Source of the DNA: Eubacteriales bacterium
Lineage (GTDB): Bacteria; Bacillota; Clostridia; Oscillospirales; CAG-272
Direction of reading: 5' to 3'
Length of the DNA stretch: 64,000 nucleotides
Assembly: GCA_045124505.1 (NCBI GenBank)
Contig: JBGVLZ010000090.1
Location: forward strand, 24,507 to 88,506
How positions within the stretch are numbered: position 1 is the first letter of the stretch; every line of letters starts with the position of its first letter. Both the position numbers and the translations under genes were made by a program. The notes under the pieces are model-generated. The model saw only the letters and a list, made by a program, of their open reading frames with translations. It was not told the origin of the DNA and made no database searches. Positions 13,872 to 50,893 of the stretch are shown piece after piece.

Positions 13872-16331
13872 TTATTTTTTTAATCCTAATTTTTCGGCGG
13901 ATTCATCACGCATTTTGTATTTGAGTATTTTACCTGCGGCATTCATCGGGAATTCGTCAACGAACATGAAGTATCTCGGAACTTTATGTCTTGCGATGGA
14001 TGCATTACCGAATTCTTTCATTTCGTTTTCGTCTGCGGTTTCACCCTTGTGAAGAATTATCCATGCACAGCATTCTTCGCCGTATTTTTCATCCGGCACT
14101 CCGACTACCTGTACGTCACGCACTTTGGGGTTTGTGAGATAAAATTCTTCAATTTCACGGGGATAGAGGTTTTCTCCCCCTCGGATTATCATATCCTTGA
14201 GTCTTCCTGTAACCTTGTAATATCCGTCAGGAGTTCTCATGCATATGTCGCCCGAATGAAGCCATCCTTCGGCATCGATAGCCTGTGCAGTTGCTTCGGG
14301 CATCTTGTAGTAACCCTTCATGATGTTAAATCCACGTGCAACAAATTCACCGCTTTCACCGTCGGGAAGCTCATTACCCGTTTCGGGATCGATTATCTTA
14401 CATTCAACACCGGGGAAAGCACTTCCGACAGTTTCCACACGGTGGTCGAGATCTTCATTTACTTCACCCATTGTACAGCCGGGAGATGCTTCTGTCTGTC
14501 CGTAAACGGAGATTATTTCACGCATATTCATCTCAACCGATGCACGGCGCATAAGATCCGCAGGACAGTTTGCACCTGCCATAATACCTGTTCTCATATA
14601 TGAGAAATCGGTTTTTGCAAAATCGGGATGATTGAACATTGCAATAAACATTGTGGGAACACCGTTGAAACACGTAATGCGCTCATCGTTTACGCAGGCA
14701 AGCGATGATTTGGGAGAGAAGTAGGGAATAGGGCAAAGCGTACCGCCGTGAGTCATCATAGATGTCATGGAAAGAACCATTCCGAAGCAGTGGAACATAG
14801 GCACTTGGATCATCATTCGGTCAGCCGTTGAAAGATCCATTCTGTCACCGATAGTTTTACCGTTGTTTACGATATTGCGGTGTGTAAGCATAACACCCTT
14901 AGGAAAACCTGTTGTGCCTGATGTGTACTGCATATTACATACATCGTCGGGGCGTACAAGAGATGCACGTCGGCGTACCTCTTCATGCGGTATAAGAGTT
15001 GAACGGGAAAGCATCTGCTCCCATGTCAGACATCCATCCATATCGAATCCGACTGTTACGACGTTGCGAAGGAAGGGAAGATTTTTGGAGTACAAGGGAT
15101 TGCCCGGCTTAAGCTCCTTGAGCTCAGGACACAGTTCCTCAATGATCTCTTTATAATTGATATCCTTGCAGAATTCGACCATAACAAGCGTGTGCGTGTC
15201 GGACTGCTTAAGCAAATATTCAATTTCGTGAATTTTATATGCGGTGTTTACAGTAACCAGAACAGCGCCTATCTTTGTGGTCGCCCAGAATGTGATAAAC
15301 CACTGAGGTACGTTTGTTGCCCATATTGCAACATGATCCCCCGCTTTTACACCGAGTGAAATGAGGGCGGCGGCACATTCGTCAACGTCACGTCTGAACT
15401 GCTCATATGTCCTTGTATAATCGAGTGTAGGATATTTAAACGCATACTGGTCGGGATATTTTTCCGCCATTGTGTCAAGAACGTCGGAAAATGTTGCATC
15501 TATAACGTCATATTTTTTCCACACAAAGGTTCCTGTTTTTGCACGGTTGTAATAAGTGTGCTCAAAACTCTTTTTTTCACGTCCCAAAGCGGAAATATAG
15601 TTTGTAAAGTGCGTAAGCACGATATCCGCATCGCTTATTTCGTCATTCCATGCGGCACATATAAAACCGTCATAGTTAAGTGAAGAAAGTGCATTTAAAA
15701 GCTTTTTAACTTCAAGGTCACCTTCGCCGATAAGAACTGTCTTTCCGTCTTTCATATCACCGAGGCGGACATATTTTATGTACGCACCAAGGTTTTTTAT
15801 AGTTGTTTCAGCGGATTCGCCTGCGGAAAAGTATGTTCCTCTTACATTCCATGAAACACCTACACAAGATGAAGCAAAGTGATTGATAATATCAATAACA
15901 TTTTCGGTTTCCGCAAGATATCCTATTGTTTCAAAAAGGATATTGACGTCATTGTTCTGCGCACGCTTGATAGCGGCGGACAGCTTCTGATCCAGAATGT
16001 CAAACGAAACATTTTCTTCTGCCATTACAATGACATTGTCAACACCTGAAGCTGCCGCCATATCAACATATTTTTCTACAAGCTCAGATGTTGTTTCTTC
16101 GCTTTCAAGTGGGCAGGGCATTCGGAGGGCTGATACGGAAAGATTACGGTTTACGAGCTTTCTTTTGGCATCCGCCACACGGTCACGTCTTAAAATGCTG
16201 TCATGATGTCTGTTTCTTTCCTTTACCGCATCATATATTTCAAAGCCTTCAAAGCCGTAGTCGTAGGCATAGCGGCAGATATCAAGGAAGGAAGACCGTT
16301 TTACATTTTTTGTCGAAAATACGATCTTCAT
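13872..16331 (-). CDS. fusion protein: N-terminal xylose-isomerase-like TIM-barrel domain + C-terminal AMP-forming acyl-CoA synthetase
   Basis: Residues ~1-250 look like a sugar-phosphate isomerase/epimerase-type TIM barrel. The rest carries AMP-binding motifs (YTSGTTGFPKGVMLTH, GQTE, GEFVARGFNIMKGYY, GWLHSGD, GRLKDMIIRGGENLYPREIE, GKILK). The start is 1 nt downstream of the upstream gene's stop codon. Confidence 0.85.
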   Translation of the reverse strand: MKIVFSTKNVKRSSFLDICRYAYDYGFEGFEIYDAVKERNRHHDSILRRDRVADAKRKLVNRNLSVSALRMPCPLESEETTSELVEKYVDMAAASGVDNVIVMAEENVSFDILDQKLSAAIKRAQNNDVNILFETIGYLAETENVIDIINHFASSCVGVSWNVRGTYFSAGESAETTIKNLGAYIKYVRLGDMKDGKTVLIGEGDLEVKKLLNALSSLNYDGFICAAWNDEISDADIVLTHFTNYISALGREKKSFEHTYYNRAKTGTFVWKKYDVIDATFSDVLDTMAEKYPDQYAFKYPTLDYTRTYEQFRRDVDECAAALISLGVKAGDHVAIWATNVPQWFITFWATTKIGAVLVTVNTAYKIHEIEYLLKQSDTHTLVMVEFCKDINYKEIIEELCPELKELKPGNPLYSKNLPFLRNVVTVGFDMDGCLTWEQMLSRSTLIPHEEVRRRASLVRPDDVCNMQYTSGTTGFPKGVMLTHRNIVNNGKTIGDRMDLSTADRMMIQVPMFHCFGMVLSMTSMMTHGGTLCPIPYFSPKSSLACVNDERITCFNGVPTMFIAMFNHPDFAKTDFSYMRTGIMAGANCPADLMRRASVEMNMREIISVYGQTEASPGCTMGEVNEDLDHRVETVGSAFPGVECKIIDPETGNELPDGESGEFVARGFNIMKGYYKMPEATAQAIDAEGWLHSGDICMRTPDGYYKVTGRLKDMIIRGGENLYPREIEEFYLTNPKVRDVQVVGVPDEKYGEECCAWIILHKGETADENEMKEFGNASIARHKVPRYFMFVDEFPMNAAGKILKYKMRDESAEKLGLKK

Positions 16332-16332: not shown

Positions 16333-17721
16333 TTATGCCTCCTCGGAAACGATCTTGTTGAGTGCGTTTATATATGCTCTTATACTTGCCGCAACGATAT
16401 CAGTTGATGTTCCGTTGCCCGAATAGAGCTTTCCGTTATTGCGGAGTCTGACAAGGGCGGAGCCAAGCGCTTCTTTTCCTTCCGTTACAGACTGAACCTG
16501 ATAATCATCAAGCTCATAATGGTGTCCGATGCACTGTTCGATTGCACGGAAAGCAGAGTCAATGGGACCGTCGCCGTTGCTTACGCCGCAGATTATTTCA
16601 TCGTTGTACTTCAAAGTGATCTGTGACATGGAGTTTGAAACATTACTGCTTGTTGTTGTGTATGTTTCAAAGTGGTATGTTGACGGCGCCTGCATTGCGG
16701 AGCTTGCAATAAGTGCTTCAAATTCCTTGGCACCCACAGAGCTTTTTTTCTCGCATATCTGTCGCAGAGCCTTGTGAACATTACCGACATCTGAATCCGA
16801 AAGCTCATAACCGAGGACAGATGCCGCCTGTGCCACCTGTGCTACAGAAGAATCTGCATCAAGTAATATCTTTGTTTTTTCGCTTATTTCGCTTTCTGAT
16901 TCATATGCTGTATGATTGATGCTTGATGTCATATCATCAATGCTTGCGTGTATTTTAGTATTATTGAGCTTGATTTCAGCGCCTATCTGCGCACCGCAAG
17001 CGTTGATCGCATCGGAAATGTATCCTGTCAAAAGAGCATTCTTTCCGATCATAGCGCACTTTATTCCGTCAGCACCGCTTTTGATTGCGGAAAATGCGCA
17101 TGCAACAGCCATATTTATACGGTCTGATACCTGAACGTAAACGGGTATATTTACCGCCTCTTTTACTTTTGAAACCAACGAAGCAATATCATCAGGTGTA
17201 CAAACACCTGCATCGTCGCACAAAGTAACGATCGCCGCACCGTTTGCTTCTGCTTCTTTTACTGCTGATATGAGATAGTCCTCATCTGCTCTTGTAGCGT
17301 CAAGGGCTGAAAATTCAACATCGTCACAAACAGCTTTTGACGCTTTGATAAGCTCTGTTATCTTTTCAAGCATTTTTGTCTGCTTGACGTGATATGTGTA
17401 TTCCATCTGAATCGTTGATACAGGTAATTCAACCTGCAAACGAGGGTTCTTGGCAGCTTTTATACATTCCCATGCAACTGCAATATTTTCACAGCTGAAG
17501 CCTACGGGAACAGCAAGTGTTGCATTCTGCACATTCTGTGCAATAGTTTTATAGATTATCGTGTCTTCACGAGCCGATCTTACAGCAGGAAGCTCAATTG
17601 CATCGACGCCGATATTAGCGGCACAGTTGGCAATAGCTGATTTTTCACGGAAGAGAAGAGATACTTCACGCTCCTGTGAAAGCTTCTTGAGAGTAATGTC
17701 AGTAACATTGATTTTTTTCAT
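16333..17721 (-). CDS. LeuA/HMGL-like paralog lacking catalytic residues but retaining the LeuA C-terminal regulatory (dimer) domain
   Basis: Collinear with 2-isopropylmalate synthase. However LRDGEQ is TLKKLSQ, HxH is VSD (YVQVSDRINMAV) and GERAGN is GKNALLTG. The C-terminus (GDGPIDSAFRAIE...GNGTSTDIVAASIRAYINALNKI) matches the Leu-binding regulatory domain. Start is set at MKKINVTD behind AAAGGAG; the longer ORF-track N-terminus overlaps the T-box terminator. Confidence 0.8.
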   Translation of the reverse strand: MKKINVTDITLKKLSQEREVSLLFREKSAIANCAANIGVDAIELPAVRSAREDTIIYKTIAQNVQNATLAVPVGFSCENIAVAWECIKAAKNPRLQVELPVSTIQMEYTYHVKQTKMLEKITELIKASKAVCDDVEFSALDATRADEDYLISAVKEAEANGAAIVTLCDDAGVCTPDDIASLVSKVKEAVNIPVYVQVSDRINMAVACAFSAIKSGADGIKCAMIGKNALLTGYISDAINACGAQIGAEIKLNNTKIHASIDDMTSSINHTAYESESEISEKTKILLDADSSVAQVAQAASVLGYELSDSDVGNVHKALRQICEKKSSVGAKEFEALIASSAMQAPSTYHFETYTTTSSNVSNSMSQITLKYNDEIICGVSNGDGPIDSAFRAIEQCIGHHYELDDYQVQSVTEGKEALGSALVRLRNNGKLYSGNGTSTDIVAASIRAYINALNKIVSEEA

Positions 17722-17766: not shown

Positions 17767-18000
17767 CAAAAAAACGCTTCCGTCTCCTTGTTGAACCAAA
17801 GAGACGAAAACGAAAATAATCACAGTTTCCGCGGTACCACTCTTCTTCATCCCGCACGGGATGCACTTTAGATGCTATCACATCTTAACTCTGTCACGGG
17901 AGTTTCCCGTCTGCCACTACTTGATATTTTCATGCCAGCCGCTCCGCGGTGAGTTCAGCAAAATTTTCTCAGTGTCTTGCACCGCCCGACACCTCTCTGT
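17767..18000 (-). promoter_or_regulatory. T-box riboswitch, specifier CUC (Leu)
   Basis: Read on the minus strand: AGAGAG...GGTGCAAG stem I, then the specifier-loop context GAA-CTC-A (plus 17950-17956). The T-box sequence is AGAGTGGTACCGCGG (plus 17829-17840). The terminator is CGTCTC..GAGACG plus a U-run (17767-17806). Confidence 0.85.
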
Positions 18001-18050
18001 ATGAAAAAAGCTTTGCGTACTATTCCGCATCCTTGCGTTTATTGCAAGCT

Positions 18051-18153: not shown

Positions 18154-18618
18154 TTACAATACTAATTCCATTCCTATTTTTTGGGGCACGAGTCCCAGTG
18201 CCTGATAAAATTTTAAAGCGGACTGATTACAGCTCCATACATTCAGCGTCAGATTATAACAATCATTTTCACGTGCAAGTCTTACTGCCGCTTCATAAAG
18301 CTCTTTGCCTATGTGCTTTCCCCGTAATTTTTCATCAACGCAAAGATCGTCAATATACAATGTTTTAATTTCGGTAAGTATGGAATTTTCTATGTGATGC
18401 TGAAAAATACAGAAGCAGTAACCCATAACCTCGTCATTTTCATCTGTATATACAAGAATGGGACGGTTCTCATCTTTAAGCAATTCTTCAAGTTCTTCTT
18501 CTGAATATTTTGTGCCTGCTTTGAAAATGTCCGGTCTGCCGTTGTGATGCACAAGACATACCTGTAACAACAGCTCTTTTATTTTCGGTATATCCTTTTT
18601 TTCTGCCATTCGTATCAT
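18154..18618 (-). CDS. GNAT-family acetyltransferase
   Basis: LCVDEKLRGKHIGKELY acetyl-CoA block. Start is at MIRMAEKK behind GGGAG, 14 nt after the DAHP synthase stop. Confidence 0.8.
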   Translation of the reverse strand: MIRMAEKKDIPKIKELLLQVCLVHHNGRPDIFKAGTKYSEEELEELLKDENRPILVYTDENDEVMGYCFCIFQHHIENSILTEIKTLYIDDLCVDEKLRGKHIGKELYEAAVRLARENDCYNLTLNVWSCNQSALKFYQALGLVPQKIGMELVL

Positions 18619-18631
18619 TTGTTTTCTCCCG

Positions 18632-19660
18632 TCAAAGCTTATCTGCAATATCAAGCACAAGGCGTTCCGTCTTTTCCCAGCCAAGGCAGGGATCGGTTAT
18701 TGATTTTCCGAAAATATGCTCCCCTGTGCTTTGCGCTCCGTCCTCTATGTAGCTTTCGATCATCAGCCCTTTTACAAGACGTCTGATGGTGGGATTTTGA
18801 TTTCGGCTGTGAACGATATCCTTTGCAATACGTATCTGCTCAATATATTGCTTTCCCGAATTGTTGTGGTTTGTATCTACAATGACCGAGGGATTTGCCA
18901 GATTTGACTTTTCATATAATTCTTCCACACGCAGAAGGTCTTCGTAGTGGTAATTTGAAGTGCTTCTTCCGGCATAGTCCACATACCCTCTCAGAATAGC
19001 GTGGGTATAGGGATTTCCGTCACTTGTGACCTCCCAGCCCTGATAAATAAATGTATGGCTTGACTGTGCGGCAACGATGGCATTCATCATAACACCGAGG
19101 TCACCGCCTGTCGGATTTTTCATTCCTACAGGTGCACCGACACCGCTTGCAGTCAGTCTGTGCTGTTGGTTTTCAACGGAACGTGCACCGACTGCGACGT
19201 ATGACAGCAGATCTGAAAGATAACGGTAATTTTCAGGATAAAGCATTTCATCAGCACAAGAAAAGTTATGATCTCTTAACGCTGCCAAATGAAGCTCACG
19301 TATGGCAACCAATCCCTTGTACATGTCGGGCTTTGCTTCCGGATCAGGCTGGTGAAGCATTCCTTTATAGCCTGCTCCCGTTGTTCTCGGTTTGTTTGTA
19401 TATATTCTCGGGATCATAACTATTTTATCCGCTACTTGCTCCTGAAGCCTGCGAAGCCTTGAAATATATTCAAGCACAGGCTCACTGTGGTCGGCAGAGC
19501 AGGGACCGATGATGAGAATAAATTTATCACAGCTTCCGTCAAATACAGCACGGATCATCTCGTCACGTTCTGATTTCACACGCTTCATTTTTTCTGTCAG
19601 GGGATATTCCTGTTTTACTTCTTCAGAAGAAGGCAGTCTTCTGTGAAATTGCATTTGCAT
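18632..19660 (-). CDS. 3-deoxy-7-phosphoheptulonate (DAHP) synthase, class I
   Basis: IIGPCS, RIYTNKPRTTGAGYKGM (KPRT block) and GMKNPTGG motifs. 342 aa. Confidence 0.9.
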   Translation of the reverse strand: MQMQFHRRLPSSEEVKQEYPLTEKMKRVKSERDEMIRAVFDGSCDKFILIIGPCSADHSEPVLEYISRLRRLQEQVADKIVMIPRIYTNKPRTTGAGYKGMLHQPDPEAKPDMYKGLVAIRELHLAALRDHNFSCADEMLYPENYRYLSDLLSYVAVGARSVENQQHRLTASGVGAPVGMKNPTGGDLGVMMNAIVAAQSSHTFIYQGWEVTSDGNPYTHAILRGYVDYAGRSTSNYHYEDLLRVEELYEKSNLANPSVIVDTNHNNSGKQYIEQIRIAKDIVHSRNQNPTIRRLVKGLMIESYIEDGAQSTGEHIFGKSITDPCLGWEKTERLVLDIADKL

Positions 19661-19925: not shown

Positions 19926-20357
19926 TTATAATTTATCCACATCGGCTTCGGTTATGATCTTGAAGCCTGCATCGCAAAGCGCTTTTTCAGCCGCATCGTT
20001 ATTTTCAACACGGATAACAACGTAAGCGTGCTTTTCTGTGCGTGCCATAAATGCATAAAGATATTCAATGTTGATCTTGTTTTCATCAAGCACTTTCAGA
20101 GCTGATGAAAGCTTACCCGGTGCATCGCCGATCTTTACACCGACAACGTCGGTGATCTTTATAAGATATCCTTCGTCTTTCAAGATTTTTTCTGCTGTTT
20201 CTTCATCGTTGACGATAAGGCGCAGTATGCCGAAATCCTGTGTTTCAGCAATAGAAAGTGCACGGATGTTTATATTATGAGCAGAAAGTGTTTCGGTGAT
20301 GGAAACGACTGCGCCCTGTTTGTTTTCAACAAATACCGTTAATTGTCTGATAGCCAT
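19926..20357 (-). CDS. ACT-domain protein (two ACT-like halves)
   Basis: 143 aa. The pattern LTVFVENKQGAVVSITETLSAHNINIRALS is repeated as GVKIGDAPGKLSSALKVLDENKINIEYLY. It lies immediately downstream of the PaaK-like ligase. Confidence 0.85.
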   Translation of the reverse strand: MAIRQLTVFVENKQGAVVSITETLSAHNINIRALSIAETQDFGILRLIVNDEETAEKILKDEGYLIKITDVVGVKIGDAPGKLSSALKVLDENKINIEYLYAFMARTEKHAYVVIRVENNDAAEKALCDAGFKIITEADVDKL

Positions 20358-20374: not shown

Positions 20375-21682
20375 TTATACAAGCTTTCTCTTGTCGATTA
20401 CACGGACGGCTTTGCCTTCGCTTCTTGCGATGCTCTTGGGTGCGACAAGATGAACGGCAGGATTTATGCCGAGCATTGTCTTCATTGCACCTGCAAGAGA
20501 TTTTTCCATGCTGAGAATTTCACTTACCTTGTCGGTGAACTTTTCGGGTGTCATTTCTACATTCACCTCAAATGTATCCGTGTTCTTTACACGGTCAACG
20601 ATGATCTGATAGTTTGGTTCATATCCTTCGTTAAGAAGTACTGTTTCTATCTGGCTGGGGAATACGTTTACACCCCTGATTATGAGCATATCGTCTGTTC
20701 TTCCCATCGGCTTTGCCATTTTGACGAGAGTTCTTCCGCAGGAGCATTTTTTGCGTGAAAGAACACAGATATCACGTGTGCGGTAACGCAAAAGCGGGAA
20801 TGCTTCCTTGTCAAGGGAAGTGAACACAAGCTCACCCTTCGAGCCTTCGGGAAGGACCTCACCTGTTTCAGGATCGATTATCTCGGCATAGAAGTGGTCC
20901 TCATTGATGTGCATACCTGCCTGCTCCTCACATTCAAATGCAACCCCGGGGCCGCTTGTTTCTGTAAGACCGTATATGTCATATGCCTTGATTCCAAGCG
21001 TTTTTTCAATACCCTGACGCATTTCCTCCGTCCACGGCTCAGCACCGAAAATGCCTGCTTTAAGCGGAATGTCTTCGGGCTTGTATCCCTGTTCCTTCAG
21101 AGTTTCACCGATATATGCCGCATAAGATGGGGTACAGCAGATGATCGAAGCGTTCAGATCCATCATGAACTGTATCTGACGGTCGGTGTTTCCTGACGAC
21201 ATGGGAAGCGTAAGACAGCCTACTTTGTGAGAACCGCCGTTAAGTCCGGGACCGCCTGTGAAAAGACCGTAGCCGTATGCGACCTGACAAACGTCTTTTT
21301 TCGTTCCGCCTGCGGCAGTTATTGCACGTGCACAGCAGTCTTCCCAAAGATCAATGTCGTGCTGTGTATAGAACGCCACAACACGCCTGCCTGTTGTGCC
21401 CGATGTTGACTGAATACGCACACAGTCCTCAAGCGGCTTTGCCAAAAGTCCGTAAGGATATGCATCTCTTAAATCTGCTTTTGTTAAAAACGGGAGCTTG
21501 TGAAGATCGTCAATTCCTTTGATATCTTCGGGCTTTACGCCCTTTTCATCCATAAGCTTTTTGTAGTAAGGGACGTTATCGTAAACGTGCTTTACCTGCT
21601 TGACGAGCTTTTCCGACTGAAGCTTTTTCATATCTTCGATCGGCATTGTTTCGATTTCCTTCTGATAGTAGTTTTGTGCCAT
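20375..21682 (-). CDS. phenylacetate--CoA ligase family (PaaK / F390-synthetase-like) adenylate-forming enzyme
   Basis: STSGTTGRRV P-loop, YGLTE, and ~435 aa architecture typical of PaaK. Start is at MAQNYYQKE behind AAGGATGG. Confidence 0.85.
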   Translation of the reverse strand: MAQNYYQKEIETMPIEDMKKLQSEKLVKQVKHVYDNVPYYKKLMDEKGVKPEDIKGIDDLHKLPFLTKADLRDAYPYGLLAKPLEDCVRIQSTSGTTGRRVVAFYTQHDIDLWEDCCARAITAAGGTKKDVCQVAYGYGLFTGGPGLNGGSHKVGCLTLPMSSGNTDRQIQFMMDLNASIICCTPSYAAYIGETLKEQGYKPEDIPLKAGIFGAEPWTEEMRQGIEKTLGIKAYDIYGLTETSGPGVAFECEEQAGMHINEDHFYAEIIDPETGEVLPEGSKGELVFTSLDKEAFPLLRYRTRDICVLSRKKCSCGRTLVKMAKPMGRTDDMLIIRGVNVFPSQIETVLLNEGYEPNYQIIVDRVKNTDTFEVNVEMTPEKFTDKVSEILSMEKSLAGAMKTMLGINPAVHLVAPKSIARSEGKAVRVIDKRKLV

Positions 21683-21752: not shown

Positions 21753-21995
21753 AAAAACGCCCTCCGCATTCCGATAAGAATACAGAGGACGAGAAAATCA
21801 ATAATCCCGTGGTACCACCTCAGTTCGCCGATACCTCACGGCAACGACCTTTTCAGGTACTGACATACCTTAGTTCTGTGACGGGAACTCCCGTTGCATC
21901 CTACTAAAGATTTCTCTTATTCAGCGCACTGCTAACAGAATGAATTCGAGAAGGACATCCGCTTTGCCTCGCACCACCCGGCAACTCTCTCCAGC
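21753..21995 (-). promoter_or_regulatory. T-box riboswitch, specifier UUC (Phe)
   Basis: Read on the minus strand: K-turn/AGTA region, then AGAGAG..GGTGCGAG, then the specifier context GAA-TTC-A followed by lower stem TTCTG (plus 21941-21947). The T-box sequence is GAGGTGGTACCACGG (plus 21803-21822). A terminator hairpin plus U-run lies at 21753-21791. Confidence 0.85.
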
Positions 21996-22060
21996 TTCTT
22001 TCCAACCTACTGGTTTCTGATCTTCGCATTTAGTGTTACAACTTATTCAATTGTGTCGTC

Positions 22061-34204: not shown

Positions 34205-34257
34205 TGCCCAAACATTTTAAATCAATAAAGTACAAATTTTCGAAAGGAAAAAACAAA

Positions 34258-37736: not shown

Positions 37737-38476
37737 TGAAAAAGGGAACTGTATTAATTATTGCAGGACTTTTGATAATTCTTTCGGCGGTATGCCTTAC
37801 CGGGTATAATCTCTACACGGCTGATGCGGCTTACAAGGATGCATCTGACGTGCTTGATCAGCTGCAGGATCTTATTCCTGATGTGCAGACAGTGCCATCT
37901 GAGGATAAAAACGACGGCACAGACACATCAAATACGCATGAGGGTGAAACTGATTCGGATGGAGTGACTGTCGAGGACGGAAGCTCCGATGTGCAGATAA
38001 AACCGATAGCACCGCAAACACCGTCATACGTTCTTAATCCCGATATCGAAATGCCTGTAAAGACATTAAACGATCAGGAATACATAGGTGTTCTTGAGAT
38101 CCCGGATATTTCTTTAAGGCTTCCCGTTATATCAAAAATGTCATATCCGAAGCTGAAAAAAGCACCGTGCCGTTACAGCGGTTCGGTTTATAAGGATAAT
38201 TTGGTAATAGGTGCACACTGCTATGAGCATTTTTTTGCAAAGCTTAAAACGCTTACAATGGGGGCTCAGGTCAAGTTTATTGATGTTGACGGAAACCTTT
38301 TTGTGTATGAGGTTATAGCAAAGGAAACTATCAGTAAAAAAAGTCCGTATGATTTAAAAACGGGAGATTGGGAGCTTACGCTTTTCACCTGCCCGATCTT
38401 GGCAAATACCGACACACGTATTGCCATGCGCTGTGAACGTACATATCCCGACAAATCCGTTTTTAATAATAAATGA
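37736..38476 (+). CDS. second sortase (class uncertain)
   Basis: N-terminal TM segment, VIGAHCY (His) and LTLFTCP (Cys) motifs. The start overlaps the pilin stop (TAATG). Confidence 0.8.
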   Translation: MKKGTVLIIAGLLIILSAVCLTGYNLYTADAAYKDASDVLDQLQDLIPDVQTVPSEDKNDGTDTSNTHEGETDSDGVTVEDGSSDVQIKPIAPQTPSYVLNPDIEMPVKTLNDQEYIGVLEIPDISLRLPVISKMSYPKLKKAPCRYSGSVYKDNLVIGAHCYEHFFAKLKTLTMGAQVKFIDVDGNLFVYEVIAKETISKKSPYDLKTGDWELTLFTCPILANTDTRIAMRCERTYPDKSVFNNK

Positions 38477-39979: not shown

Positions 39980-40235
39980 TAGATTAATAGGTTATGATGA
40001 AGGCAGTACGGTAGGATCAATGTTTACAGAGAGCCGCATAATGGTGCAAGTGCGGTAACAAATTTTACCTGAAGAACACTTCGGAGCCTGCGGAAGAACG
40101 CCTTTTGGTTATTAGAACCGCACGTTGATCGCGAAAAGATTTAATGAAGAGGGCCGTTTTACGGTCAATTTGGGTGGTATCGCGGAAGAGGAGCCTTTCG
40201 TCCCATATTATGGGGCGGAAGGCATTTTGTTTTTC
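39980..40235 (+). promoter_or_regulatory. T-box riboswitch, probable specifier AAC (Asn)
   Basis: AGAGAG (40028-40033)...GGTGCAAG. The specifier context is CTGAAG-AAC-A-CTTCGG (AAC at 40075-40077). The T-box sequence is AATTTGGGTGGTATCGCGG (~40168-40186). The terminator GCCTTTCGTCCC/GGGGCGGAAGGC is followed by a T-run. Confidence 0.85.
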
Positions 40236-40291
40236 TTCCGTATAAAATGATTAAAAAAGAAAATATTTTACTAAAAGGAGTACAATATATT

Positions 40292-42067
40292 ATGCTTAGA
40301 ACACACACTTGTAATGAACTCGGTATAAATAATATCGGGGAAAAAGTAACCCTTACAGGCTGGATGGATACTGTGCGTGACCACGGAGGCGTGCTCTTTG
40401 TTGACCTTCGTGACCATTACGGAGTAACACAGATCGTTCTTTCCGATGATTCGCTTATCGCAGGCATCGCAAAGGAAACAGTTATTCTTGTTGAGGGTGT
40501 TGTTTCCAAGAGAGATGAAGAAACAGTAAACCCCAAGATCGCAACAGGTCTTATCGAAGTGAAGGCTGAAAAGGTTGAGGTGCTTGGTCCCTGCCAGCTC
40601 GGACTTCCTTTCGAAATCGATACATCAACACAGACAAGAGAAGAGGTAAGACTTAAGTACAGATATCTTGACCTTCGTAACCGCAAGATACACGATAACA
40701 TCGTGCTTCGTTCAAAGATACTCAGCTATCTCCGTTCCCAGATGGAAGATCTCGGATTTTTGGAAATACAGACACCTATTCTTACAGCTTCATCCCCTGA
40801 AGGCGCAAGAGACTATCTTGTTCCCAGCCGTAAGCACAAGGGCAAGTTCTACGCTCTGCCTCAGGCTCCTCAGCAGTTCAAGCAGCTTCTTATGGCATCG
40901 GGCTTTGACCGTTACTTCCAGATAGCACCTTGCTTCCGTGATGAGGATGCACGTCAGGACAGATCACCCGGTGAATTCTACCAGCTCGACTTTGAAATGT
41001 CCTTTGCAACACAGGAGGACGTATTTGCAGTTGCTGAAACTGTTGTATATAACACATTTACAAAGTTCTCTGACAAGAAGGTATCAAAGCCTCCGTTTAG
41101 AAGGATCACATTTGCTGATGCAATGCTGAAGTACGGTACGGATAAGCCCGACCTTCGCAACCCCCTGGAAATAAAGGATCTTACAGACTTCTTTGCAAGA
41201 CATGAATTCCTTGATATCAACGGCAGAACAGTTCCGTTCAAGAATAAGCTTGTACGCGGTATCGTTGCAAACTACCTTGTGAAGAAGGACGGTGAGGGCG
41301 ACGGTAAAAAGGCGTTTGAAAAGGCTATCGACACATATTCAAGAAGCATCGGAATGAAGTTCGGATGCGGATATATAACACTTGAAGGCGATGATTTCAA
41401 AGGTCCTATTGCAAAATTCCTTACAGACGAACAGAAAAAAGAGCTTTGCGAGATATGCGGCGTAAAAGAAGGCGACTCCATCTTCTTCATCAGCGACAGC
41501 GCTTCTGTTATCGACCGTCTTTCCGGCGAAATGAGAACATGGATCGGTAACGAGCTTGGACTTATCAAGGACGATTCCTTTGAATTCTGCTTCATTGTTG
41601 ACTTCCCGATGTATGAACTCAACGCTGAAACAGGCAGAATTGACTTCACACACAACCCCTTCTCAATGCCCCAGGGCGGTATGGATGCACTTCTTAATAA
41701 AGATCCGCTTGAAATATTTGCTTATCAGTACGATATCGTATGTAACGGTGTTGAGCTTTCTTCAGGTGCTGTACGTAACCACAACCCCGAAATAATGAGA
41801 AAAGCGTTTGAAATTGCAGGTTACGGTGAGGAAGACCTCAAGGCTAAGTTCGGCGCGCTTTACACGGCGTTTGCATACGGTGCTCCCCCTCATGCAGGTA
41901 TGGCGCCCGGCGTTGACAGAATGATAATGCTTATTGCAGGCGAAGAAACAATAAGAGATGTTATCGCATTCCCGCTTAACGGAAATGCACAGGATCTCAT
42001 GATGGGCGCACCGGGCGAGGTTACGGAGCAGCAGCTTCGTGAGGTTCACATAAAAGTTAGAGATTGA
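40292..42067 (+). CDS. aspS: aspartate--tRNA ligase (probably non-discriminating)
   Basis: Class IIb motifs (FYQLDFEMSF, GVELSSGAVRNH, GAPPHAGMAPGVDR). Start is at MLRTHTCNELG. It lies in an operon with gatCAB. Confidence 0.93.
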   Translation: MLRTHTCNELGINNIGEKVTLTGWMDTVRDHGGVLFVDLRDHYGVTQIVLSDDSLIAGIAKETVILVEGVVSKRDEETVNPKIATGLIEVKAEKVEVLGPCQLGLPFEIDTSTQTREEVRLKYRYLDLRNRKIHDNIVLRSKILSYLRSQMEDLGFLEIQTPILTASSPEGARDYLVPSRKHKGKFYALPQAPQQFKQLLMASGFDRYFQIAPCFRDEDARQDRSPGEFYQLDFEMSFATQEDVFAVAETVVYNTFTKFSDKKVSKPPFRRITFADAMLKYGTDKPDLRNPLEIKDLTDFFARHEFLDINGRTVPFKNKLVRGIVANYLVKKDGEGDGKKAFEKAIDTYSRSIGMKFGCGYITLEGDDFKGPIAKFLTDEQKKELCEICGVKEGDSIFFISDSASVIDRLSGEMRTWIGNELGLIKDDSFEFCFIVDFPMYELNAETGRIDFTHNPFSMPQGGMDALLNKDPLEIFAYQYDIVCNGVELSSGAVRNHNPEIMRKAFEIAGYGEEDLKAKFGALYTAFAYGAPPHAGMAPGVDRMIMLIAGEETIRDVIAFPLNGNAQDLMMGAPGEVTEQQLREVHIKVRD

Positions 42068-42084
42068 TTTTAAGGAGTGGAAAT

Positions 42085-42366
42085 ATGGATAGAAACACAC
42101 TCAGAAGACTTGAGCTTCTCAATCAGCTCAGTTTGACAGAAACGCAGAAAGATGAAGTTATATCGTTTTTTCAGGACAGAGAAAAAGACGCTGAAGTTCT
42201 TGAAAATATAGACACCGCCAACGTGGAACGTATGGTACACGTAATGCCTATTATGACGGTAGTGCGTGAGGATATCCCCTCACAGCCGTTTTCACGTGAC
42301 GACCTTCAAAAGGGTGCACCCGAAACCGACGAGGGATATTGGTGCGTTCCCCGTGTTGTAGAATAA
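42085..42366 (+). CDS. gatC: Asp/Glu-tRNA amidotransferase subunit C
   Basis: 93-aa protein between aspS and gatA. AAGGAG RBS. The typical GatC tail is present (...APETDEGYWCVPRVVE). Confidence 0.85.
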   Translation: MDRNTLRRLELLNQLSLTETQKDEVISFFQDREKDAEVLENIDTANVERMVHVMPIMTVVREDIPSQPFSRDDLQKGAPETDEGYWCVPRVVE

Positions 42367-42379
42367 GGAGGGTATTCAG

Positions 42380-43546
42380 ATGATATATACAGCGAAAAAA
42401 GATGTTAATTCCGCTTGCAAAATAGTGGCGGAGGATATGCTCCTTACAACTGATATGCCTACAGCAGCAGGCTCAAAGATGCTTGACGGTTATATGAGCC
42501 TTCTTGAAGCAGAAGTGCTGACAAGACTTAAAAATAAAGGTTATGGTGTATGCGGAAAAGCTGACGTAGGTGAATTTGCCATTGACCTTTTAGGTGAGAC
42601 TTCATATAACGGTGCAAATACAGCGGACGGAAAAATTGTAAATTCATCTGCTGAAATACTGAAGAAAAATGAAGCCGATGCGGTCATCGCACTTGATGTT
42701 AACGGTGCAGTACGCCGTGCCGCAGCGCAGAACGGTCTTGTAAGTGTCAAGCCCACATACGGAACTGTTTCACGTTACGGAACAATTCCCGTTGCTTGCT
42801 CAGGCGAAACAGTGAGCGTTATGGCAAAGAATGCCGATATGTGCCGCAAAATTCTTGATGATATTGCAGGACACGATAACAAGGACGGCACAAGCCTTCC
42901 CGAATGTGAAATAGCTAAAAAGGCTGATGTGAAGTCTATAAAACGCATAGCAATTATAAATGATATGATGGCTGATGTTTCCGATGACATCAAAGCAAAC
43001 ATTGATGATGCTTGTGCAAAGCTCGGAGTTGAAACGGTGAAGATCGACAGTTCTGTAATTGCCGCATCACGTGCTGCCTGGAACATTCTTATGAGTGCGG
43101 AGCTTTGCAACAATGTTTCAAGATATGACGGTGTAAAGTACGGACACAGAGCCGAGAAGTTCTTAGGAATTGATGAGCTTTATACAAACAGCCGTACAGA
43201 GGCTTTCGGCGAACTGCTTAAAACTGCAATAATTTTCGGTTCGGAAACACTTTCGACAGAAAATTATATGAAGGTATATGATAAAGCACTTCGTACACGC
43301 CGTGTAATTGCAGAGGAATTTGCAAAGATATTTGCAGAATTTGACGCTGTGATGATCCCCGCTTGTTCAAAGGCTTTCTATACGGAAGATGATGTAAAGG
43401 CGGATAAATACATTTCTTACAAAGAAAACTTCTATACAGCACCCGCATCGATCACGGGACTTCCTGCGGTCGTCGCACACGGTGTACAGCTTATAGGCAA
43501 GGCTTTTTCCGAAAATGCATTGCTTGAGCTTGTATCAAAGCTTTAA
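42380..43546 (+). CDS. gatA: GatA-like amidase-signature protein, N-terminally short and lacking the Lys/Ser(nucleophile) catalytic residues
   Basis: Collinear with GatA (TAAGSKML, VKPTYGTVSRYG, SRYDGVKYG, FGSETLS, ASITGLPAV). It is only 388 aa. IKDN is AEDM, GGSSGGS is VNSSAEI and DTGGSIRQPAA is DVNGAVRRAAA. Confidence 0.8.
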   Translation: MIYTAKKDVNSACKIVAEDMLLTTDMPTAAGSKMLDGYMSLLEAEVLTRLKNKGYGVCGKADVGEFAIDLLGETSYNGANTADGKIVNSSAEILKKNEADAVIALDVNGAVRRAAAQNGLVSVKPTYGTVSRYGTIPVACSGETVSVMAKNADMCRKILDDIAGHDNKDGTSLPECEIAKKADVKSIKRIAIINDMMADVSDDIKANIDDACAKLGVETVKIDSSVIAASRAAWNILMSAELCNNVSRYDGVKYGHRAEKFLGIDELYTNSRTEAFGELLKTAIIFGSETLSTENYMKVYDKALRTRRVIAEEFAKIFAEFDAVMIPACSKAFYTEDDVKADKYISYKENFYTAPASITGLPAVVAHGVQLIGKAFSENALLELVSKL

Positions 43547-43563
43547 AGGGAGGTATAACGGCT

Positions 43564-45006
43564 ATGAAATACGAAACAGTCATAGGACTTGAAGTACATG
43601 TTGAGCTTGCAACACAGTCCAAAATTTTCTGCTCATGTTCGGCACATTCATACGGTGCAGAGCCTAATGAGCATGTATGCCCCGCTTGCTGCGGTATGCC
43701 GGGTATGCTTCCCGTTGTAAACAAAAGAGTTGTTGATTACGGTATGAAGGCAGGGCTTATGCTCGGATGCGATATTAACCGTGTAACGACATTTGACAAA
43801 AAAAGCTATTACTATCCCGACCTTCCCGCCGCTTATCAGACAACGCAGTGGTTTGCGCCGGTTGCCATAAACGGTCTTGTTGAAATTGAAACTTCAAAGG
43901 GCAAAAAGGGAATACGCATAAAGCAGATCCATATGGAGGAAGATGCAGGTAAGCTTGTACACGATATAAGAGAAGACACAACACATGTTGACTTCAACCG
44001 TACAAGTGTTCCGCTTATTGAAATAGTAAGCCAGCCTGACCTTTCCTGTGCGGAAGAGGTTGAAGCTTATCTTGAAAGACTGAAAAATCTGCTCCGTTAT
44101 GCAAGAGTTGCAGAGTGCGAAATGGCACACGGAACGATGAGATGTGACGTTAACCTTTCCGTCCGTCCGGAAGGAAGCGATAAGCTCGGTGTGCGTACCG
44201 AAATGAAAAATATGAACTCAATTGAAGCTATCAAGAGAGCTATTGAGTATGAAACGGCAAGACACATAGATGCGCTTGAAAACAACACAGAGGTGCTTGT
44301 TCAGGAAACAAGACGCTGGGATGATATCAAGGGCAAGAGCTTTGCTATGAGAACAAAGGAAACAGCAGGCGACTACCGTTATTTCCCCGACCCCAACGTA
44401 ATGCCCGTTGTTATCGATGATGCGTGGTTTGATGAAATCAAGTCATCGCTTCCCGAATTCCCTGAAGTAAAGCGTGCACGCTATACAGAAGAATACGGAC
44501 TCGGCGAATACGATACAGAACAGATCACAAAGAGTATTGCGCTTTGTGAATGCTTTGAAGAAGCCGCAAAGGTGTGCGGCGACGCCAAGAATGCCGCAAA
44601 CTGGATAATTTCCGAGGTTATGAGCATTCTCAACCTTCGCCAGATGACGTATGATATGCTTACTGTAAGCGGAAAGTCACTCGGTGAGCTTATTGTGCTT
44701 GTAGCGGGCGGAAAAGTCGGACGTGCAAATGCAAAGAAGATACTTGCCGCTATGTTTGACGATGCAAGCATCAACCCTGAAGAGTATGCAAACGCAAACG
44801 GATTTATCATATCAAATGATACAGGACTTATCGATAAGGTCGTAAAGACGGTTGTTGAGTCTGATCCCAAGTCCGTTGCAGACTATAAGTGCGGTAAGGA
44901 AAAAGCACTTATGGCACTGTTCGGCAGATGCATGAAAGAGCTTAAAGGAAACTGTGATCCGCAGGTCCTCAGAAAAATACTGATCGACTATATCGATAAA
45001 ATATAA
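43564..45006 (+). CDS. gatB: Asp/Glu-tRNA amidotransferase subunit B
   Basis: YETVIGLEVHVEL, CPACCGMPG and HMEEDAGK motifs plus a C-terminal YqeY-like tail. 480 aa. Confidence 0.93.
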   Translation: MKYETVIGLEVHVELATQSKIFCSCSAHSYGAEPNEHVCPACCGMPGMLPVVNKRVVDYGMKAGLMLGCDINRVTTFDKKSYYYPDLPAAYQTTQWFAPVAINGLVEIETSKGKKGIRIKQIHMEEDAGKLVHDIREDTTHVDFNRTSVPLIEIVSQPDLSCAEEVEAYLERLKNLLRYARVAECEMAHGTMRCDVNLSVRPEGSDKLGVRTEMKNMNSIEAIKRAIEYETARHIDALENNTEVLVQETRRWDDIKGKSFAMRTKETAGDYRYFPDPNVMPVVIDDAWFDEIKSSLPEFPEVKRARYTEEYGLGEYDTEQITKSIALCECFEEAAKVCGDAKNAANWIISEVMSILNLRQMTYDMLTVSGKSLGELIVLVAGGKVGRANAKKILAAMFDDASINPEEYANANGFIISNDTGLIDKVVKTVVESDPKSVADYKCGKEKALMALFGRCMKELKGNCDPQVLRKILIDYIDKI

Positions 45007-48254: not shown

Positions 48255-48283
48255 TTGACAAATTTGTTTTCGTGGTGTATAAT
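48255..48283 (+). promoter_or_regulatory. sigmaA-like promoter of T-box leader
   Basis: TTGACA - 17 nt - TATAAT. Confidence 0.6.
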
Positions 48284-48289
48284 TCGCAC

Positions 48290-48551
48290 ATGTAAACACT
48301 GTGAAGAAAACGGCAGAAAAAGGTTTTCGCAGAGAGTCGGCGGCAGGTGTAAGCCGATAAAACTGATTTCGGTAAGCCACATCATTTCTGAGTGGGAGAG
48401 GTGAAGACAGTAGCTTCTCACGTTAAGCCGCGTTAAGGCAAAGGGCTTTGTGATGAGTCCGAAGTGGCATTTTTATGCAAATTGAGTGGTACCGCGGATC
48501 ATTCCGTCTCAAGGTTGTTAAAGGACTTTGAGACGTTTTTTGTTTTCACGC
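48290..48551 (+). promoter_or_regulatory. T-box riboswitch, tentative specifier AUC (Ile)
   Basis: AGAGAG..GGTGTAAG. The lower stem CAGAAA/TTTCTG is the same geometry as the Phe leader, with AC-ATC-A immediately 5' of TTTCTG (ATC at 48381-48383). The T-box sequence is AAATTGAGTGGTACCGCGG (48479-48497). The terminator is CGTCTCAA..TTGAGACG plus a T-run (48505-48551). Confidence 0.8.
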
Positions 48552-48604: not shown

Positions 48605-50893
48605 ATGGAAAAAACAGATTTGAAAACACAGCTCTCAGAGGTTGCACAGCGAATTAGAACACTTCGCGAGATCATGGGCATTTCTGCTGAGGACATGGCG
48701 GTTAAAACAGGAGTTTCAATAGAAAACTATCTTAAATACGAATCAGGTGAGCAGGACTTCAGCTTTACCTTTATTTATAAATGCGCAAAGCATCTCCGTG
48801 TTGACCCAACGGATCTTATAAAAGGTGAAAGTCCGACTCTTTCAAATTACACACTTACAAGAAGCGGTGAGGGACTTCCCATCACACGCCGTGAGGGTTT
48901 TAAATATCTGAATATGGCACCGCTTTTCAAACAGAAGACGGCAGAGCCGTTCTTTGTTGAAATGCCGTACTGTGCGGAAGACGCCGAAAAGCCTATCAAA
49001 ACGTCTACACATGAAGGACAGGAGCTGGATATTGTTATATCAGGCAAAATGAAAGTTCAGATAGGCAACCATACGGAAATACTCGGCGAAGGGGACTCAA
49101 TATACTACAATTCTTCAGCACCTCATGGCATGGTATCTCTTGATCCCGAAGGCACAAAATTCTATGCAATAGTACTCAAAAGTACCGAAGAAAAAGCAGA
49201 AAAGGATAAGTTTGAGCAGATCGTTTCACAGCGCAAAGCAAGACGTGATGCGCACAGAACAAGCGTTGCGGCGAACTTCATTGATACTGTATGCGACGAA
49301 AACGGTGTTTTGCAGTCTATATCCTTTAAAAATGAAGATAAATACAATTTTGCTTTTGATACTGTCGATGCAATTGCCGATAAATCCCCCGACAAGCTTG
49401 CGATGCTTCACATTTCAAACGATAAAACGGAAAGAAGATTTACGTTTGCTGACATGAAAAAGTATTCTGCAATGACAGCAAATTACTTCGAATCGCTCGG
49501 AATAAAGAAGGGCGACCGCGTAATGCTCGTTTTGAAGCGTCATTATCAGTTCTGGTTCTCAATTCTTGCGCTTCATAAGATAGGTGCTATTGCAATTCCC
49601 GCAACAAACCAGCTTATGCAGCACGATTTTGAATATAGATATAAAGCAGCGAATGTAAATGCTATTGTTTGTACATCTGACGGTGATGTTGCAAATCAGG
49701 CTGAAATAGCATCAAAAACAACGTCCCCTGACCTTATCAAGATCATTGTAGGCGAGAAAAAAGAAGGCTGGCTTGATTTCAACGAAGGCTTTGCAAAAAT
49801 GTCTGACGTTTACGAAAGAACTGCAGATTCTGCCTGCGGCTTTGATCCGATGCTTATGTACTTCACATCAGGTACAACAGGATATCCGAAGATAGCAACT
49901 CACGACTACAGATATGCAATCGGTCACTATATCACAGCAAGATATTGGCACAATGTCAATCCCGAAGGGCTTCACTTTACCATTTCAGACACGGGCTGGG
50001 GAAAAGCTGTCTGGGGCAAGCTGTACGGTCAGTGGCTGTGTGAAGCGGCAGTATTCACATATGATTTCGACAGATTTGATGCAAATGAAATACTTCCGAT
50101 GTTCGCTAAGTACAATATAACAACATTCTGTGCTCCCCCCACGATGTACCGCTTCTTTATAAAAGAGGATCTTTCAAAATTCGATCTTTCAAGTATTGAA
50201 TATTCTACAACTGCAGGCGAAGCACTTAACGCGGAAGTATTTGAACAGTGGCATAAGGCAACAGGTCTTACAATAATGGAAGGCTTCGGACAGACGGAAA
50301 CAACGCTCAGTGTTTGCAATCTTGTCGGTACAATGCCGAAACCGGGTGCTATGGGAAGACCGAGCCCTCTATACGACGTTGATATTGTAGATGAAAACGG
50401 AAAATCGCTTCCAGACGGTGAAACGGGTGAGATCGTTATCCATACAGATAAGCACATACCTTGCGGACTTTTCAAGGGCTATTATCTGAATGAAGAAAAG
50501 ACAAACGAGGTATGGCATGACGGACTTTACCACACGGGCGACACCGCTTGGCGCGATGAAGACGGATATTTCTGGTATGTCGGAAGAACGGATGACGTTA
50601 TCAAGTCATCTGGTTACCGTATAGGTCCGTTTGAAATTGAAAGCGTTATTATGGAGCTTCCTTACGTTCTTGAATGTGCCGTAACCGCAGTCCCCGACCC
50701 GATAAGAGGTCAGGCTATAAAAGCATCTATCGTGCTTGTAAAGGGCAAAGAGGGAACGGACGAACTCAAAAAAGAGATACAGACATATGTTAAGGAGCAT
50801 ACAGCACCCTATAAGTATCCCAGAGTTGTTCAGTTTATGGATTCACTTCCCAAGACTATAAGCGGAAAAATAAAGAGAAATGAGCTCAGATAA
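48605..50893 (+). CDS. fusion protein: XRE HTH + cupin + AMP-forming (medium/short-chain) acyl-CoA synthetase
   Basis: The N-terminal HTH_3 (IRTLREIMGISAEDMAVKTGVSIENYLKYESG) is followed by a cupin (HEGQELDIVISGKMKVQIGN...APHGM). Then comes the ACS core (FTSGTTGYPK, GFGQTET, YHTGD, GRTDDVIKSSGYRIGPFEIE, SGKIKR). Confidence 0.85.
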   Translation: MEKTDLKTQLSEVAQRIRTLREIMGISAEDMAVKTGVSIENYLKYESGEQDFSFTFIYKCAKHLRVDPTDLIKGESPTLSNYTLTRSGEGLPITRREGFKYLNMAPLFKQKTAEPFFVEMPYCAEDAEKPIKTSTHEGQELDIVISGKMKVQIGNHTEILGEGDSIYYNSSAPHGMVSLDPEGTKFYAIVLKSTEEKAEKDKFEQIVSQRKARRDAHRTSVAANFIDTVCDENGVLQSISFKNEDKYNFAFDTVDAIADKSPDKLAMLHISNDKTERRFTFADMKKYSAMTANYFESLGIKKGDRVMLVLKRHYQFWFSILALHKIGAIAIPATNQLMQHDFEYRYKAANVNAIVCTSDGDVANQAEIASKTTSPDLIKIIVGEKKEGWLDFNEGFAKMSDVYERTADSACGFDPMLMYFTSGTTGYPKIATHDYRYAIGHYITARYWHNVNPEGLHFTISDTGWGKAVWGKLYGQWLCEAAVFTYDFDRFDANEILPMFAKYNITTFCAPPTMYRFFIKEDLSKFDLSSIEYSTTAGEALNAEVFEQWHKATGLTIMEGFGQTETTLSVCNLVGTMPKPGAMGRPSPLYDVDIVDENGKSLPDGETGEIVIHTDKHIPCGLFKGYYLNEEKTNEVWHDGLYHTGDTAWRDEDGYFWYVGRTDDVIKSSGYRIGPFEIESVIMELPYVLECAVTAVPDPIRGQAIKASIVLVKGKEGTDELKKEIQTYVKEHTAPYKYPRVVQFMDSLPKTISGKIKRNELR

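Follow-up and report, generated by a model that had tools for sequence, protein, structure and literature searches.

Leucine, phenylalanine and isoleucine T-box leaders precede acyl-CoA ligase genes in a Clostridia genome and suggest an amino-acid salvage regulon

We describe a 64,000-nt stretch of DNA from Eubacteriales bacterium (CAG-272; GCA_045124505.1, contig JBGVLZ010000090.1, positions 24,507-88,506, forward strand), called the window below, in which three amino-acid-specific T-box leaders stand before genes for AMP-forming acyl-CoA ligases. Using the Rfam covariance model RF00230, with a gathering score of 93 bits, in a scan of the whole window and in a focused scan, we found four T-box leaders whose specifiers read CUC (Leu), UUC (Phe), AAC (Asn) and AUC (Ile). 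As the specifier we took the codon that ends the specifier loop on its 3′ side; a single nucleotide, as a rule a purine, separates it from the closing helix. Protein calls were made with Pfam domains and with NCBIfam models and their equivalog cut-offs. The leaders, their signals and the genes behind them are:

18079-18051, minus strand: promoter of the Leu leader, sigma-70-like, 12/12 matches
17797..18042, minus strand: Leu T-box leader (RF00230, 124.5 bits; specifier loop GAA-CUC-A)
17812-17775, minus strand: terminator of the Leu leader, a hairpin of 16 pairs and a U-run
16333-17721, minus strand: LeuA-like protein, 462 residues, first gene of the Leu operon (Pfam HMGL-like and LeuA_dimer)
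13872-16331, minus strand: fusion of a TIM barrel and an AMP-forming acyl-CoA ligase, 819 residues, second gene of the Leu operon (Pfam AP_endonuc_2 and AMP-binding)
22089-22061, minus strand: promoter of the Phe leader, sigma-70-like, 10/12 matches
21782..22033, minus strand: Phe T-box leader (RF00230, 92.2 bits, E 8e-21, just below 93; GAA-UUC-A)
21791-21758, minus strand: terminator of the Phe leader, a hairpin and a U-run
20375-21682, minus strand: PaaK-like phenylacetate-CoA ligase, 435 residues (Pfam AMP-binding and AMP-binding_C_2)
19926-20357, minus strand: stand-alone ACT-pair protein, 143 residues, 17 nt after the PaaK-like gene (Pfam ACT_8)
about 48256-48284, plus strand: promoter of the Ile leader, TTGACA-17-TATAAT, read by eye
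48292..48514, or to 48541 with its terminator, plus strand: Ile T-box leader (RF00230, 97.7 bits; AUC-A, with a 4-nt loop insertion)
about 48505-48541, plus strand: terminator of the Ile leader, a hairpin and a U-run, read by eye
48605-50893, plus strand: fusion of an XRE-type helix-turn-helix (HTH), a cupin and a MacS/MbcS-like acyl-CoA synthetase (ACS), 762 residues (Pfam HTH_3, Cupin_2 and AMP-binding)
39985..40208, plus strand: Asn T-box leader (RF00230, 111.9 bits; GAAG-AAC-A)
39985..45006, plus strand: Asn operon, a classical T-box target, with the Asn leader, aspS, gatC, a short gatA-like gene and gatB (RF00230, NCBIfam)

The core motifs of the conserved T-box sequence (..GGUGGUACCGCG..) are present, in an antiterminator that would compete with the terminator hairpin and U-run; the Leu and Phe hairpins have 15-16 pairs. 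An original prediction, made from the sequence without database searches, had read the three ligase-linked specifiers as CTC, TTC and ATC, and the covariance-model alignments return the same codons. Its leader coordinates overlap the real elements but are shifted by about 30-40 nt. The Phe leader has orthologues in five relatives (L081, L082, L083, L095 and L126) that score 93.3-105.7 bits, all above the gathering score. We considered whether the 4-nt loop insertion makes the Ile specifier untrustworthy and rejected this, as 25 orthologous leaders without such ambiguity also read AUC. The Asn leader was correctly expected to control a classical target, and aspS, gatC and gatB exceed their NCBIfam cut-offs, but the gatA-like gene falls below its own.

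The Leu leader had been described as preceding the fusion; more precisely, the LeuA-like gene comes first behind it and the fusion second, the two genes abutting with zero gap. Pfam agrees with the domain architectures originally described for the ligases, the LeuA paralog, the ACT protein and the HTH-cupin fusion, and all three window ligases combine an AMP-binding domain with a C-terminal domain, as in the ANL superfamily of adenylate-forming enzymes. NCBI labels the two proteins of the Leu operon ‘hypothetical protein’ and ‘AMP-binding protein’. The best LeuA model of NCBIfam gives the LeuA-like protein 252 bits against a cut-off of 532, and the protein lies far under the cut-offs of all LeuA, citramalate synthase and homocitrate synthase models. 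It carries DITLKKLSQ in place of DTTLRDGEQ and VQVSD in place of HxH, so that the metal ligands of the DRE-TIM site are gone, and the same positions show no conservation across 66 family members. The LeuA_dimer domain (PF08502, 108.9 bits) is the best-conserved part of the family and holds most of the columns with at least 90% conservation, including a G-D-G-P-x-D loop. The picture of a catalytically dead LeuA that keeps its regulatory domain thus stands as far as the lost ligands and the conserved domain are concerned, while leucine would be its predicted ligand.

The fusion protein scores 674 bits with NCBIfam PRK12583, whose cut-off is 832; it belongs to the PRK12583 group, where it has no characterised close relative. 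We propose that it is an isovalerate-CoA ligase. Homologue searches with the fusion and the LeuA-like protein returned matches only at 81-93% identity, and wider diversity came from a search of 50%-identity cluster representatives and from a species-level scan. In the cluster search the TIM::ligase fusion forms a small, distinct family. One apparent stand-alone ligase (P0123, 52% identical) was set aside as probably a truncated gene call, all its relatives being TIM fusions. The TIM barrel (PF01261, 53.4 bits against a cut-off of 31.1) matches NCBIfam models of keto-sugar epimerases, hydroxypyruvate isomerase and 2-oxo-tetronate isomerase weakly (E 1e-11 to 1e-4). Its metal site is complete in distant orthologues (E134, D162, H164/H165, H187, H189, D192 and E227; loci L026-L080), and the window’s clade of about 22 species has N162, R164, G165, Y187, R189 and A227. 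In this one lineage the TIM domain is apparently becoming a pseudoenzyme.

The species-level scan was alignment-based, with one genome per species, and yielded 80 full-length fusion loci among more than 590 matching stretches, at 54-90% identity. All of them come from uncultured gut or rumen metagenome-assembled genomes (MAGs), nearly all labelled Clostridia, with Acutalibacteraceae, Oscillospiraceae, Faecousia, Ruminococcus and Lachnospiraceae among the groups; their open reading frames (ORFs) were clustered to describe the neighbourhood. In 72 loci the gene immediately before the fusion is the LeuA-like one, and contig ends cut 3 of the remaining 8. Of the 68 loci with sufficient upstream sequence, 48 have a T-box core motif some 100 nt ahead of the LeuA-like gene. 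We read the specifiers by a structural rule (a codon, one nucleotide, a 4-bp helix complementary to the strand that follows the K-turn, and then NGAG), which gave CUC in 39 leaders and CUG in 7, with two further CUC leaders read by eye; all 48 are Leu codons. When 12 leaders from fusion loci, before either gene family, were re-scanned with Rfam, every one exceeded the gathering threshold. One locus, L061, has a CUC leader directly before the fusion and lacks the LeuA-like gene. Among fusions that are about 90% identical there are two distinct Leu leader sequences, GGAA...GUCUCG (L001, L021 and L054) and GCGG...GAACUCA (the window, L003 and L006), both with CUC, which suggests that the leader was exchanged between close relatives and its specificity kept.

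The ligase domain of the HTH-cupin::ACS fusion closely resembles MacS of M. acetivorans (PDB 3etc_A, E 2e-189), an enzyme that prefers 2-methylbutyrate as substrate (PMC10455477). Its best NCBIfam model is MbcS, at 432 bits and below the equivalog cut-off of 850, and we propose that it is a 2-methylbutyrate-CoA ligase. About 30 of the 80 fusion loci have this gene beside the Leu operon in one or two copies, for 41 genes altogether, 32 with a T-box of their own. These leaders read AUC (25), GUA (5-6) or GUC (2) and nothing else; in L056 the Rfam alignment shows the Val loop as GUCU-GUA-G. The proteins form two paralogue groups, Val-led ones being closer to Val-type references and Ile-led ones to Ile-type, and the window’s small clade is about equidistant from both. 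Because the paralogue groups match their own specifier type, the Ile and Val versions appear to have arisen by duplication of leader and gene together with a specifier switch. A Val/isobutyrate counterpart had been suggested as worth seeking, and this separate group behind Val leaders, which probably acts on isobutyrate, is what the relatives contain; within the window we found no Val-led copy. The Val-led gene (GUA or GUC) often stands in tandem with an Ile-led one (L001, L013, L018, L020, L021, L036, L048, L054 and L056). The HTH-cupin part also occurs both fused to ACS and as a separate gene (L072).

The pairing of leader and gene has no exceptions: LeuA-like/ligase operons have only CUC or CUG, and HTH-cupin::ACS genes only AUC, GUA or GUC. 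Since synonymous switches (CUC/CUG and GUA/GUC) occur, and since two unrelated-looking leader types both carry CUC, the conserved feature would seem to be the amino acid.

The ligase of the Phe unit is called PaaK-like rather than PaaK because it misses the equivalog cut-off of TIGR02155 (531 against 646 bits); an exact-sequence look-up of the protein matched no record. In a sample of 80 metagenome loci with homologues at 76-91% identity, the ACT protein follows PaaK nearly always, and iorA and iorB, both passing their NCBIfam cut-offs, precede the PaaK-ACT pair in 31-36 loci. The five relatives named above have a T-box before PaaK, in all cases with UUC. For Bacteroides, the AMP-forming ligase beside an IOR is an arylacetate-CoA ligase, and the pair may be anabolic (PMC13285125). 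A Phe-starvation switch before the same ligase lends independent support to that anabolic view of IOR and ligase.

Several gene families recur beside the Leu operon in the 80 fusion loci. Subunits of a 2-oxoacid:ferredoxin oxidoreductase (OFOR) were found in 17 (alpha), 10 (beta) and 13 (gamma) loci, and 4 loci have a PFOR-type enzyme in a single chain. An Amidohydro_2 protein is present in 24 loci, a P-loop ATPase in 21 and a class IV aminotransferase in 14. With 530 bits against 399 the OFOR alpha subunit exceeds the cut-off of VorB, and the aminotransferase that of a branched-chain aminotransferase (BCAT; 505 against 307). A common order is Leu T-box, LeuA-like gene, fusion, BCAT, P-loop ATPase, ferredoxin, VOR alpha/beta/gamma and HTH-cupin, with or without ACS. 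The cluster of L039, from a Ruminococcus MAG, opens with a promoter, a CUC leader and the leader’s terminator; the eight genes behind them overlap or are at most 31 nt apart: LeuA-like gene, fusion, BCAT, P-loop ATPase, a 2x[4Fe-4S] ferredoxin (an ORF of 75 residues with two CxxCxxCxxxCP motifs) and VOR alpha, beta and gamma. The coding strand of this cluster contains no strong terminator, and the cluster looks like one unit. Closer to the window, L004 and L008 (fusions 85-87% identical to the window’s) have VOR immediately upstream of the leader, and L008 has an aminotransferase as well. Elsewhere it is the PFOR-type enzyme that comes after the fusion, both in other fusion loci and, outside Clostridia, in contigs labelled Bacteroidaceae; in the latter (L161-L163, from the NCBI protein label) the module consists of LeuA-like gene, fusion and PFOR-type enzyme, and the upstream DNA is AT-rich and has no T-box. 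As these contigs carry the module without the leader, it must be of greater age or mobility than the T-box control. Two of the recurring families have regular places: the P-loop ATPase, with faint similarity to ApbC/Mrp, usually lies between BCAT and VOR (21 loci, for example L063 9490-10206), and the Amidohydro_2 protein often lies after the fusion (24 loci, for example L042 8527-9339).

Many cellulolytic rumen and gut Clostridia need or gain from branched-chain volatile acids and phenylacetate, and knowledge that such acids are carboxylated to amino acids goes back to the 1960s. Allison and co-workers reportedly found that rumen bacteria reductively carboxylate isovalerate, 2-methylbutyrate, isobutyrate and phenylacetate to Leu, Ile, Val and Phe. 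To our knowledge, the genes that activate the acids and the control of this carboxylation are largely unassigned in rumen and gut Clostridia. We consider it probable that the three units of the window form a regulon for amino-acid salvage that amino-acid starvation would induce. When tRNA-Leu, tRNA-Ile or tRNA-Phe becomes uncharged, the matching leader would form its antiterminator and allow read-through into the AMP-forming CoA ligase. The ligase would then activate the matching fermentation acid (isovalerate, 2-methylbutyrate or phenylacetate), a VOR-type or IOR-type oxidoreductase with reduced ferredoxin would reductively carboxylate the acyl-CoA to the 2-oxo acid, and an aminotransferase would turn the 2-oxo acid into Leu, Ile or Phe. 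This interpretation, which the original prediction had proposed, gains support from the pairing of specifier and gene, from the Val paralogues and from the VOR, BCAT and iorAB neighbourhoods; the substrates of the ligases and the direction of flux are inferred from sequence. The anabolic direction is favoured because AMP-forming ligases, as argued in PMC13285125 (2026), favour acyl-CoA synthesis, are poorly reversible and conserve no ATP.

The LeuA-like, ACT and HTH-cupin modules could make the units respond, at a further level of control, to the free amino acid or to an intermediate of the pathway, a tentative reading to which we give somewhat less than an even chance. It is suggested by the LeuA-like protein’s regulatory domain being its best-conserved part, by the translational coupling of its gene to the ligase gene, and by the occurrence of the HTH-cupin both fused and separate. 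Going further, the LeuA-like pseudoenzyme and the TIM::ligase fusion might form one complex, in which a regulatory subunit taken from the de novo leucine pathway gates a salvage ligase by free leucine; where the TIM metal site is intact, the barrel would add a catalytic or channelling step that helps to pull the uphill carboxylation by the adjacent VOR or PFOR. With ACT/PaaK and cupin/ACS included, a general design would emerge in which every acid-activating ligase answers to two signals, tRNA charging at the level of RNA and a small molecule at the level of protein. We regard this combined picture as speculative and rather unlikely as a whole.

Several observations weigh against a salvage regulon or narrow it. 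T-box control is incomplete: no T-box was detectable in about 20 of the 68 LeuA-like/fusion operons or in 9 of the 41 HTH-cupin::ACS genes, and none was found before PaaK in 69 of the 75 loci with sufficient upstream sequence. For ten fusion loci that lack the core motif, Rfam at the gathering score also found no T-box; the absence is therefore real at that sensitivity, and T-box control of the Leu unit is common but not universal. The Phe leader before the PaaK-like ligase, predicted for the window and present there and in five relatives, is sporadic: set against the 69 loci, the five UUC leaders make T-box control of PaaK-ACT real and recurrent, yet, as most of the pairs have no T-box, an overlay at the level of lineages and not an obligate part of the module. 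The 2-oxoacid:ferredoxin oxidoreductases to which the original prediction had looked lie in co-directional clusters in relatives, BCAT with them, and iorAB precedes many PaaK-ACT pairs, but the 64-kb window itself contains no vor, ior or aminotransferase gene. An adjoining DAHP synthase gene suggests that de novo aromatic synthesis is present too. For the Leu unit, the assignment of isovalerate draws on the specifier and the gene context, and the three-step route has no need of the TIM barrel, catalytic-looking in distant orthologues and degenerate in the window’s clade.

The ligases might instead supply branched-chain acyl-CoA primers for membrane fatty-acid synthesis when branched-chain amino acids are short, as MbcS does in S. 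aureus. MbcS is the best NCBIfam model for the Ile-linked ligase and enables branched-chain fatty acids to be made from 2-methylbutyrate and isobutyrate (PMC10026030, PMC11167679), and the T-box would sense a shortage of branched-chain amino acids, the usual source of primers. Yet the match to MbcS lies far under its cut-off (432 against 850), and a supply of primers leaves unexplained both the Phe leader before PaaK-ACT and the LeuA-like partner. Moreover, BCAT and VOR share a T-box-led cluster with the ligase, and running them oxidatively would use up the scarce amino acid. We give this explanation little credence.

Less probable again is a catalytic role for both the LeuA-like protein and the TIM barrel, with an unrecognised chemistry on the acyl-CoA or the 2-oxo acid, which would make the module more than a ligase and a sensor. 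The distant orthologues have a full E-D-H-H-D-E site of the keto-sugar epimerase/hydroxypyruvate isomerase kind, the LeuA-like barrel has conserved polar residues (D8, E43, E107, Y108, E136, D141, R144, D169 and K221), and the order of LeuA-like gene, fusion and OFOR is kept even in the Bacteroidaceae-labelled contigs. However, the catalytic positions of the LeuA-like protein vary within its family, the window’s clade (about 22 species) has kept the operon and its T-box but no longer has the metal ligands of the TIM barrel, and salvage in three steps requires no extra enzyme.

It is very unlikely that the Leu leader is an ordinary leuA T-box before a divergent but active 2-isopropylmalate or citramalate synthase, with the ligase as an unrelated passenger. 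Leu T-boxes before leuA are classical (PMC2494555), and the HMGL-like and LeuA_dimer domains are both there. Against this, the LeuA, citramalate synthase and homocitrate synthase models all remain far below their cut-offs, the RDG aspartate and the HxH ligands are missing at positions that the family does not conserve, and NCBI names the protein ‘hypothetical’. In addition, the LeuA-like gene overlaps or abuts the ligase gene in 72 of 80 loci, and in L061 the CUC leader stands directly before a fusion without the LeuA-like gene.

That the clusters are catabolic, fermenting amino acids to volatile acids that the ligases recycle or detoxify, is scarcely credible. In its favour, organisms that ferment amino acids also run VOR, IOR and BCAT in the oxidative direction, and the IOR of B. 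thetaiotaomicron is linked to phenylacetate production (PMC13285125). Against it, a T-box induces its genes when the cognate tRNA is uncharged and the amino acid scarce, the reaction of AMP-forming ligases is poorly reversible and conserves no ATP (PMC13285125), and the enzymes that fermenters use for that step are kinases with phosphotransacylases, or ADP-forming synthetases.

The salvage reading can be set beside four known systems. The Leu unit has the antitermination layout of the B. subtilis ilv-leu Leu T-box and of leuA T-boxes (PMC2494555), with a Stem I specifier, T-box sequence and terminator, and, like leuA T-box operons, a leader with a Leu codon before an operon that opens with a LeuA-family gene. 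Unlike in those operons, the LeuA-family protein here lacks the catalytic metal ligands, and the enzyme is an acyl-CoA ligase, often followed by BCAT and VOR. Because the ligands are lost and the enzyme is an acyl-CoA ligase, with BCAT and VOR next in many relatives, the target of this Leu T-box would be salvage from an external acid and not the de novo pathway. The Ile unit shares a closely homologous ligase domain with MacS (PDB 3ETC) and S. aureus MbcS, whose preference for 2-methylbutyrate (and, for MbcS, use of isobutyrate as well) fits the Ile and Val leaders; in contrast to MacS and MbcS, the protein here has an N-terminal XRE-HTH and cupin, lies behind a T-box and, in relatives, has VOR and BCAT in its cluster. 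MbcS is known for supplying fatty-acid primers, and its equivalog cut-off is not reached here.

The proposed route follows the chemical logic of reductive carboxylation in rumen bacteria and methanogens, from acid to acyl-CoA, 2-oxo acid and amino acid (Leu, Ile, Val and Phe). The classical work on it was physiology and enzymology, with no activating genes or regulation assigned in Clostridia, whereas the loci described here supply candidate genes, show that these cluster and place them under a control that senses starvation. For Methanobacterium, PMC13285125 cites anabolic VOR and IOR. The Phe unit, finally, resembles the iorAB-paaK-ACT clusters of gut anaerobes, with the IOR and AMP-forming arylacetate-CoA ligase of Bacteroides (PMC13285125) as an example, in its PaaK-like ligase and adjoining ACT protein, and differs from them in that the window’s pair is detached from iorAB and lies behind a Phe T-box, an arrangement of few lineages.

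In the literature that we searched, neither a T-box placed ahead of an acyl-CoA ligase nor a regulon of this kind is described, in agreement with the original prediction, which was aware of none; an earlier mention is possible. A 2008 survey of T-box targets (Wels 2008, PMC2494555) mentions no acyl-CoA ligases. All the components are of known kinds. New are salvage ligases as a T-box target class, the specifier-based assignment of substrates to four ligase groups, and the module of a dead LeuA and a TIM::ligase fusion. Known T-box targets fall into synthetases, de novo biosynthesis and transporters; if the salvage regulon is real, salvage from fermentation acids is a fourth class, and the specifier is a substrate label, readable from sequence, for four anonymous ligase families. 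In that case metabolic models of abundant uncultured Oscillospirales would have to be corrected, also in what they predict about auxotrophy and cross-feeding. The Leu, Ile, Val and Phe units would then lend themselves to clean experiments on the direction in which VOR and IOR run in vivo, and would provide, in the dead LeuA, a pseudoenzyme recruited as a possible sensor.

The remaining features of the window are neighbours of these units:

18632-19660, minus strand: DAHP synthase, a neighbour not shown to belong to the Phe operon (NCBIfam PRK12755, 344 bits against a cut-off of 343)
29798-38476: sortase-dependent pilus cluster, with Cna_B and SpaA pilins and two sortases
54034-55666: spoIIGA-sigE
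55693-62691: GH94-family protein, 2332 residues

Two genes on the same strand, for a GNAT acetyltransferase (18154-18621) and the DAHP synthase, lie between the Phe and Leu units. We rejected the DAHP synthase as a member of the Phe operon: the 265-nt spacer after the ACT gene holds hairpins and a promoter-like site, and the gene seems to have its own promoter. Its position beside a Phe-controlled operon may be more than chance. The pilus cluster, the GH94-family protein and spoIIGA-sigE are the ordinary context of a spore-forming Clostridium.

The gatA-like gene of the Asn operon (42380-43546) is short, with 388 residues and 235 bits against a cut-off of 481, and an asparaginase/GatD-like gene (38608-39660) lies just upstream of the Asn leader; the two may reflect an unusual amidotransferase set-up. 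A tRNA-Thr(GGU) gene has a Gut-1 RNA (86 bits) as its immediate downstream neighbour (52817-52893 and 52929-53004 of the window, both on the minus strand), and a further Gut-1 copy is present in the related locus L047 at 9296-9376.

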